Virus record (IMG/VR): IMGVR_UViG_2713896789_000009 | Direction: 5' to 3' (one strand) | DNA: 11,118 nt | Source of the DNA: a virus | Taxonomy: Duplodnaviria; Heunggongvirae; Uroviricota; Caudoviricetes | Shown: positions 6,701-6,729 of the stretch, in pieces | Numbering within the stretch: the stretch's first letter is position 1 | Layout: each line of letters begins with the position of its first letter | Made by a program: the position numbers and the translations under genes | The notes under the pieces: generated by a model | Told to the model about the DNA's origin: nothing | Databases searched by the model: none | What the model saw: only the letters and a program-made list of their open reading frames with translations

Positions 6701-6729
6701 TTGACTTGAAAGGTAACTCTTGTTACCTT
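6701..6729 (+). promoter_or_regulatory. PL-like promoter for the early-left operon with an embedded operator (TTGACT, 17-nt spacer, TACCTT; operator GGTAACtcttGTTACC at 6712-6727)
   Basis: -35 and -10 hexamers with 17-bp spacing. A perfect 16-bp palindrome of the same type as the two in the cro-cI intergenic region occupies the spacer. Confidence 0.5.

Follow-up and report, generated by a model that had tools for sequence, protein, structure and literature searches.

We analysed an 11,118-nucleotide stretch of viral DNA (IMG/VR virus record IMGVR_UViG_2713896789_000009; hereafter the window), which is 100% identical with a chromosomal segment of E. coli 2013C-3181, and followed up a sequence-only reading according to which positions 6701-6729 hold a promoter like PL of phage lambda together with an operator for the product of the adjacent repressor gene. 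Our results support that reading. With a probability of about 0.85, as judged from sequence comparison, 6701-6729 would be the early promoter for leftward transcription in a lambdoid prophage remnant, an analogue of PL and the positional orthologue of the promoter dicBp of the K-12 prophage Qin, with an operator (OL1) in its core. The support comes from the slot that the element occupies, from the covariation of its operator with the immunity type, from promoter and operator travelling as a unit with the repressor gene, and from a mirror-image promoter, PR, on the cro side. Since all comparative tests agree, the element is treated here as an OL1/PL pair, for which repressor binding, occlusion, promoter activity and start site are inferred.

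Putative operators on both sides of the repressor gene

The elements at the repressor gene and downstream of it are as follows (lengths in amino acids, aa, nucleotides, nt, or base pairs, bp).

5964-6638, plus strand: CI-like repressor gene, 224 aa from ATG 5964, with HTH_3 and Peptidase_S24-like domains (Pfam)
6645-6674, plus strand: intrinsic terminator after the repressor gene, with its hairpin at 6645-6668 and a U-run, -16.5 kcal/mol, z = -4.4
6680-6695, strandless: candidate weak operator OL2, TGTACCttttGCAACA, with one good half-site, TGTACC, starting 32 bp upstream of OL1
6701-6706, plus strand: -35 hexamer of PL, TTGACT, 5/6 of the consensus, conserved in 46 same-type sequences
6710-6729, strandless: putative operator OL1, AAGGTAAC tctt GTTACCTT, 0 mismatches, 18.2 bits with the weight matrix, rank 3
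6721-6729, plus strand: extended -10 of PL, TGt-TACCTT, with TG at 6721-6722 and the hexamer at 6724-6729
6735-6738, plus strand: predicted start of the left operon, placed 6-9 nt past the -10

The window had been said to contain a third copy of an operator palindrome, a perfect 16-bp one at 6712-6727, and both sequence and coordinates were borne out: the core GGTAACtcttGTTACC reads GGTAAC/tctt/GTTACC with perfect 6-bp arms. The arms actually extend to 8 bp, giving a 20-bp site at 6710-6729. When up to two mismatches were allowed, GGTAACN4GTTACC was found three times in the window (at 5901, 5949 and 6712) versus 0.23 expected, and three copies were reached in 1 of 200 shuffles at the same threshold. 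The other two copies both lie between cro and the repressor gene, and no further operator appeared in the window at up to three mismatches. When scored with a symmetrised weight matrix derived solely from relatives (34 sites), the same three sites came first in the window (21.8, 21.0 and 18.2 bits), compared with a maximum in shuffled sequence of 10.6 bits on average and 13.9 at the 95th percentile.

The site at 6710-6729, a putative operator of the cro-side sequence family, overlaps the core of a predicted promoter with sigma-70 elements at the correct spacing, in which the -35 hexamer is separated from TACCTT by the 17 nt at 6707-6723. The pattern TTGAC-N15-TGnTAnnnT occurs once in the window, precisely at 6701-6729, versus 0.04 expected, and the three positions at which TACCTT agrees with TATAAT are the best-conserved ones (T1, A2 and T6). 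The palindrome had been placed within the 17-bp spacer; the spacer length stands, but the last four bases of the palindrome are the first four of the -10 hexamer. As claimed earlier, the element lies downstream of the repressor terminator, about 30 bp past a hairpin that folds well (z = -4.4) and has equivalents in relatives. The -35 follows the stop codon of the repressor gene by 62 nt and precedes the ATG of ydfA by 210 nt. PL points away from the repressor gene, on the side opposite to OR/PR, into the early left operon, and the order of an OL/PL region is found throughout: cro on the minus strand, then, on the plus strand, repressor gene, terminator, promoter and ydfA through dicF, dicB, exonuclease, xis and int. 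Reading the minus strand at the palindrome by eye only, we saw no acceptable -35 and no TGn. Back-calculating a start for K-12 dicBp from the 'positions 813/814' numbering of RNase III cleavage in DicF was considered and dropped, the origin of that numbering being unverifiable.

The counterpart elements on the cro side are the following.

5657-5872, minus strand: cro-like gene of the P22_Cro family (Pfam PF14549, E = 2.9e-16; RefSeq 'Cro/CI family')
5899-5928, minus strand: PR-like promoter, TTGACA (5928-5923), 18 nt, TGt-TACCCT (5904-5899), with O1 in spacer and -10
5901-5916, strandless: putative operator O1 (OR1-like), GGTAACaataGTTACA, 1 mismatch, 21.8 bits, rank 1
5924-5939, strandless: tentative weak middle site (OR2-like), GTCAACcataGCAACA, overlapping the -35 of PR, at 23 bp from O1 and 25 bp from O3
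5949-5964, strandless: putative operator O3 (OR3-like), GGTAACattgGTTACA, 21.0 bits, whose end coincides with the A of the likely repressor start

The minus-strand promoter reads TTGACA ttgtta TGTAACTATTGTTACC CT, and its pattern, TTGAC-N16-TGnTAnnnT, again occurs once in the window (minus strand, 5928-5899) versus 0.04 expected. Since it faces cro, we take it as PR, with O1 embedded in it as OL1 is in PL; the two outward promoters that flank the repressor gene are thus mirror images, and both -10s are made from the half-site GTTACC. O1 is nearly invariant among same-type loci, its flanks being variable. The middle site scores only 2.4 bits, and relatives have a degenerate middle site at the equivalent place. 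An operator abutting the repressor ATG is found in all homologous loci, and its ending exactly on ATG 5964 suggests that the repressor mRNA may be leaderless or nearly so, like those of lambda cI and paaR2. RefSeq starts the repressor at ATG 5922, in which case the middle and third operators would be coding; ATG 5964 fits the N-terminus of DicA (MKNTISERIR versus METKNLTIGERIR).

The OL2 candidate ranks fourth among 11,103 positions with 8.7 bits. Relatives have an OL2 31-35 bp upstream of OL1, some also an OL3, and the half-site (T/A)GTA(A/C)C is retained in the loci L228 and L230; of a tandem three-operator array, the window would hold one strong site and this candidate. Since nothing more was found at three mismatches, the OL2 candidate and the middle site of the cro side are argued from position and from relatives.

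Conservation within the type was followed in a MAFFT alignment of 46 distinct sequences with the same repressor. The left half-site of OL1 is invariant and the right one has three singleton changes; few changes fall in the -35, and 6670-6700 and 6707-6711 are more variable.

The unit in relatives, across immunity types and in known systems

Homologues of the repressor with 42-89% identity share an invariant recognition-helix segment, RVSVTKWENG, and their genes stand in loci with a divergent P22_Cro gene and with different left operons (YfdP/DUF2303, nSTAND ATPase, KilR/YdfE). On the cro side they have operators of the same family, in most cases three at intervals of 23-25 bp, of which the last ends on the ATG. 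At 60-100 bp past the repressor stop, after a terminator hairpin, they carry a unit composed of -35, 5 nt, 16-bp operator and TT, with a second operator 31-35 bp upstream in most loci. Such units (locus, with the organism where noted) are:

L228: TTGACT tcact GGTAACTCTTGTTACC TT
L230: TTGACA taact AGTAACTATTGTTACC TT
L173: TTGATC ttttc GGTAACTATTGTTACC TT
L174 (Erwinia): TTGACG atgaa TGTAACATTAATTACC TT
L163 (E. coli): TTGACC atcaa GGTAACTAAAGGTACA TT
L167 (Edwardsiella): TTGACG ccatc AGTAACCAAAGGTACA TT
L169 (Hamiltonella): TTGACT tttaa AGTAACCAATATTACA TT

A scan with the composite pattern, covering 185,579 species with one genome each, gave 53 matches versus about 35 estimated by chance, and 17 of them had a homologue of the repressor in the same stretch. 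In 15 of these 17 the homologue was full-length, 42-47% identical, on the same strand, and ended 70-115 bp upstream of the match. The genera were Yersinia, Phytobacter, Edwardsiella, Buttiauxella, Pseudescherichia, Superficieibacter, Kluyvera, Kosakonia, Chania and Rahnella, with one further record labelled Chryseobacterium, and the operator unit is present in at least 10 enterobacterial genera.

The second comparison went in the opposite direction, from the operon to the repressors. Anchored on ydfA, 80 IMG/VR loci were collected, whose upstream regions fall into about 14 types with unrelated or distant repressors. In 13 types, including K-12 Qin, a promoter with a palindrome lies between the repressor operon and ydfA, with a -35 of the TTGAC/TTTAC kind (TTGCCA in one), 16-18 nt and a TAnnnT-like -10 (CATTAT in one), and with the -35 at -105/-106 from the ydfA ATG (short leader) or at -207 to -211 (long leader). 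The palindrome in spacer and -10 resembles the palindromes between cro and repressor gene of that same type, as in K-12 (GTTAGTcatgGCTAAT at PL versus GTTAGTcataACTAAC at Oc), L031 (ATTAGGCATTTCCTAT versus ATAGGCTATGCCTAAT), L038 (ATACCTATGGGTAT versus ATACCCACAGGTAA) and L034 (AATAGTAGTGGTATT versus AATAGCATCACTATT). When each PL segment was scored against the cro-side region of every type, 12 of the 13 types matched best with their own region or with that of a closely related type; the diagonal sum was 157 versus 131.2 +/- 3.8 under permutation, a value reached by none of 200,000 permutations, and the covariation holds with related pairs collapsed (10 unrelated types). Homology between heteroimmune types begins 8-12 nt past the -10, which argues that the immunity module ends approximately at the transcription start.

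Past that boundary, the leaders between PL and ydfA are either short (K-12-like, about 60 nt) or long (about 170 nt). The window has the long form:

6739-6910, plus strand: 'long' leader, conserved across 7 unrelated immunity types

The long leader opens with a C-rich tract, CAACCCACCCCGCCCCACAGAA, and its core, GGTTAAGTAGCCAGCCCGAGGCG.AAGAACATGACGGCA, is retained in L173 despite different flanks. As a structured RNA of the put or nut kind, 6736-6910 folds worse than its shuffles (z = +1.6), and the leader gave no Rfam match, only noise at E up to 10; it is possibly rut-like or protein-binding. Among the repressors of the heteroimmune types, those of L002, L003, L017, L019, L032, L034, L038 and L080 have unrelated or divergent helix-turn-helix (HTH) domains. 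Many (DicA, PaaR2 and others) share a short C-terminal helical module, …ELLxLFxALPxSEQ…, and an S24-like domain is seen only in the window type and in L015. DNA-binding and oligomerisation domains appear to have undergone shuffling.

In Qin, dicBp is the major promoter of ydfABC-dicF-dicB; deletion of dicA derepresses it 22-fold, deletion of dicC has no effect on it, and DicF is processed from the transcript (PMC10448788). DicA binds in vivo to the operator Oc (TTGTTAGTCATAACTAACAA), and one A-to-C substitution is enough to abolish this (PMC3441716). One recent study lists the location of DicA binding at dicBp as unknown (PMC7567609), and the Reg-Seq paper offers nothing usable on dicB. The window element is like dicBp in lying about 60 nt past the repressor gene and in leading into ydfABC-dicF-dicB, and the geometry is identical, TTGACC gatat GTTAGTcatgGCTAAT ct in K-12 and TTGACT tgaaa GGTAACtcttGTTACC tt in the window. 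It is also like it in having a 6-N4-6 core in a 20-bp palindrome of the same size as Oc and a repressor whose HTH is 54% identical to that of DicA. Its -35 is at -210 from the ydfA ATG, in the long-leader class, whereas that of K-12 is at -106, so that the leader is about 100 nt longer; in addition, the -10 of the window depends on a TGn extension. The window repressor has a lambda-CI-like S24 domain at its C-terminus, where DicA ends in a short helical tail. The DicA-type operator GTTAGT-N4-ACTAAC is not what is found here, the half-sites being GGTAAC/GTTACC, and since the half-sites differ (GGTAAC versus GTTAGT) the window type and Qin are taken to be heteroimmune.

CP-933P (type L032) belongs to the same prophage family, with the long leader and the ydfA operon. 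Its promoter PL933P, downstream of the repressor operon and with operators of the cro-side family, is repressed about 100-fold both by PaaR2, the CI analogue, and by the Cro analogue YdaS (PMC8630535). CP-933P differs in the repressor family (PaaR2), in operators made of GTTTAGTAA repeats (GTTTAGT repeats), in the three OL sites reported, and in a toxin-antitoxin pair between repressor gene and PL.

As in lambda, the putative early leftward promoter is found beyond the repressor gene and has an OR-family operator over its core, the repressor aligns over its full length with CI (3bdn), and the mechanism would be promoter occlusion. Lambda, however, has three strong cooperative 17-bp operators, where the window has one strong 16-20-bp site and the half-site candidate; it also has N with nutL first in the operon, whereas no N gene or nutL was found directly downstream of PL in the window, the first genes being ydfA, ydfB and ydfC, and the rexAB position is empty. 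The region 6730-6910 gave no Rfam match and no clear boxA/boxB. A boxA resemblance at 6845-6857 (CAACTTTAATAAC) is only weak. In prophages of E. coli, Edwardsiella and Hamiltonella, canonical boxA-like sequences (CGCTCTTTAACAA, GCTCTTTAAAAA) lie about 130-300 nt downstream of the homologous PL (L164 at about 4030-4045, L167 at about 3890-3905, L169 at about 3845-3860), which suggests antitermination of the N/nut type in these three. To P22 C2 the repressor is similar in its N-terminal domain (E = 1.3e-12), and the two short half-sites with four variable central bases are those of a C2- or 434-type operator; the half-site sequence differs (the P22 consensus is ATTTAAG-N4-CTTAAAT), and P22 C2 keeps its catalytic Ser.

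Proposed mechanism and alternatives

A dimer of the CI-like repressor would read the two GGTAAC half-sites by an HTH of the P22-C2/DicA type, the four central bases being probably uncontacted. The site would span approximately -27 to -8 from the predicted start, abutting the -35, and since it covers the TGn and the -10 hexamer, bound repressor should exclude RNA polymerase. Occlusion would silence ydfABC-dicF-dicB and, by read-through, also exonuclease, xis and int. According to its fold, DicF ends in its own hairpin and U5, so that expression of dicB and the exonuclease gene from PL needs read-through; read-through past the DicF terminator is documented for K-12. The repressor would also bind O1 and O3 at the divergent cro and repressor promoters, and the Cro of the P22_Cro family very probably binds the same sites.

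This last point leads to the possibility that the site at PL serves the Cro-like protein mainly or exclusively, the CI-like repressor acting at the cro side alone. Cro proteins share their operators with the cognate repressors, YdaS is a strong repressor of PL933P, and each homologous locus has a P22_Cro-family gene together with that of the repressor, so that covariation alone cannot separate the two proteins. The functional data nevertheless point to the repressor: loss of dicA by itself derepresses dicBp and loss of dicC does not (PMC10448788), and PaaR2 represses PL933P too (PMC8630535). Of the three sites, moreover, OL1 has the best palindrome, which is what a repressor site of high affinity should have, and toxic dicB and dicF in a prophage require a maintenance repressor at this place. 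We consider an operator for Cro alone very unlikely. Another explanation, quite unlikely as well, accepts repressor binding and denies the promoter: the palindrome would be a looping partner or roadblock, with the true promoter elsewhere, for instance in the long leader. The weak -10, the failure of the consensus scan described below and a start that is only predicted speak for it, and CI-like proteins with such a C-terminal domain can loop OL to OR, as established for lambda. Against this, the pattern of -35, 17 nt and TGn-10 is unique in the window, the promoter position is kept in all 13 immunity types, including short-leader types that have no 6739-6860, the homology of heteroimmune types starts where a module boundary at +1 would put it, and dicBp and PL933P are active promoters in the same slot (PMC10448788, PMC8630535). 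That the palindrome is a chance inverted repeat, an RNA hairpin or a terminator for transcripts reading through from the repressor gene is hardly credible. In RNA, about 45 nt past the terminator, a 6-bp stem closing a 4-nt loop is conceivable, but no U-run follows it, three sites stand against 0.23 expected, and the offset from the -35 is fixed; furthermore, the half-sites flank homologous repressor genes in other genera, with variable centres and imperfect symmetry that would not preserve a hairpin.

Several observations weigh against an OL1/PL pair at 6701-6729. Within the type, conservation gives a modest signal, since the sequences are closely related and differ little overall. There is a single strong operator at PL, where lambda OL has three, and the OL2 candidate is not significant alone. 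The -10 hexamer matches the consensus at 3/6 only, and because of this a simple consensus scan of 5500-7300 for promoters and terminators found no promoter; the scan also missed the repressor terminator, because the stem was over-extended, and explicit pattern statistics (for promoters) and folding (for the terminator) were used in its place. The literature search did not turn up the operator sequences. One of the 13 immunity types, L015, has no clear match between its own sites. In Kosakonia, the -35-like TTGACT abuts the operator directly, and two genes are inserted there between repressor gene and PL. Finally, two Salmonella loci, L171 and L172 (repressor 70% identical, with GDAM in its S24 motif), keep the cro-side operators and have none at the next promoter. 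In these loci the region past the repressor gene is replaced, and the next promoter-like site, TTGACA…TTAAGT, lacks a GGTAAC palindrome; it is possible that their left operon is uncoupled.

The S24 domain of the repressor and the prophage remnant

In the S24 domain of the window repressor the motif is VEGDAMT (6360-6380), in place of VEGNSMT in lambda CI, and the nucleophile Ser is replaced by Ala137 (GCG codon, 6372-6374). The domain retains its Ala-Gly site (EQAGYW) and Lys (VTLKKV). GDSM or GESM is present in 14 of 18 aligned sequences, with one further homologue degenerate at the motif, and GDAM in all 80 close IMG/VR relatives. Ala is also present in P0002 (89% identity) and in P0005 (70% identity, Salmonella), while P0003 (L228), with an 88% identical repressor, keeps Ser and has OL1/PL and ydfA identical. 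LexA S119A and lambda CI S149A are the established basis for expecting no self-cleavage; by this analogy the repressor probably does not self-cleave and its lock on PL would be blind to the SOS response. We give slightly less than even odds to the further idea that Ala137 is a natural 'ind-' domestication of CI, with an SOS-blind lock on DicF, DicB and the exonuclease. If it is true, sister prophages with the Ser-keeping, 88% identical repressor and the same OL1/PL would stay SOS-inducible, and derepression in the window type would need a Cro-driven switch or an antirepressor. Such a lock fits a domesticated remnant with toxic dicB and dicF.

The gene layout was taken from the RefSeq annotation of the identical locus L001 and from our own Rfam and Pfam scans. 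The layout opens with hokD/sok and a three-gene cassette without assigned function. On the minus strand follow the Q antiterminator, two small open reading frames (ORFs), a DUF977 gene and genes for an O-like HTH protein, YdaT and the P22_Cro-family Cro, the rightward operon being read from cro through ydaT, the O-like gene and the DUF977 gene to Q. On the plus strand come the genes for the CI/LexA-family repressor, ydfA, ydfB and ydfC, a 124-aa ORF, DicF, dicB, the DUF1482 gene, the large exonuclease gene, xis and int, the int end adjoining ompW. Since no late genes are left, the element is a prophage remnant of about 13 kb, of the Qin/Rac kind. The 1.5-kb region around 6701-6729 is carried, to at least 80%, by about 700 of 5,426 complete E. 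coli genomes. The features of the left operon are:

6911-8562, plus strand: left operon (RefSeq annotation of L001, Rfam, Pfam)
6911-7066, 7068-7196 and 7226-7444, plus strand: ydfA, ydfB and ydfC
7467-7841, plus strand: ORF between ydfC and DicF
8148-8199, plus strand: DicF (Rfam, 75.8 bits), with its own terminator at 8161-8204
8374-8562, plus strand: dicB
8559-8747, plus strand: DUF1482 gene, continuing the operon after dicB
8843 to the window end, plus strand: exonuclease gene

The ORF at 7467-7841 is missing from the K-12 Qin operon and has no significant Pfam match. Within the exonuclease gene, 9454-9503 are 50 masked non-ACGT bases. At the left edge of the remnant, the sok antitoxin RNA (79-254, minus strand; Rfam RF01794, 117 bits) stands with hokD, and this edge adjoins a frameshifted IS421 transposase in the source genome. 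The cassette at 431-2581 (plus strand; 363, 142 and 197 aa, the first two genes overlapping by 4 nt) lies between hokD/sok and Q, convergent with Q, where late genes would begin. It gave no matches in PADLOC or Pfam and is a moron, so far unannotated, in a hot spot of prophages; it may be a system for defence or some accessory function.

The kind of promoter described here is well known and the operator specificity is new; beyond the specificity and the consensus, this is textbook lambdoid regulation. DicF and DicB affect cell division, metabolism and phage resistance and, in enterohaemorrhagic E. coli, virulence regulation. Our analysis assigns a concrete putative operator, promoter and repressor to the DicF/DicB operon of a prophage type that is common in Shiga-toxigenic and other E. 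coli. The comparison of 13 types also locates the putative operator in each variant of the promoter, K-12 dicBp among them, and gives the operator consensus (G/A/T)GTAAC-N4-G(G/T)TAC(A/C) for the repressor family, which occurs across the Enterobacterales.

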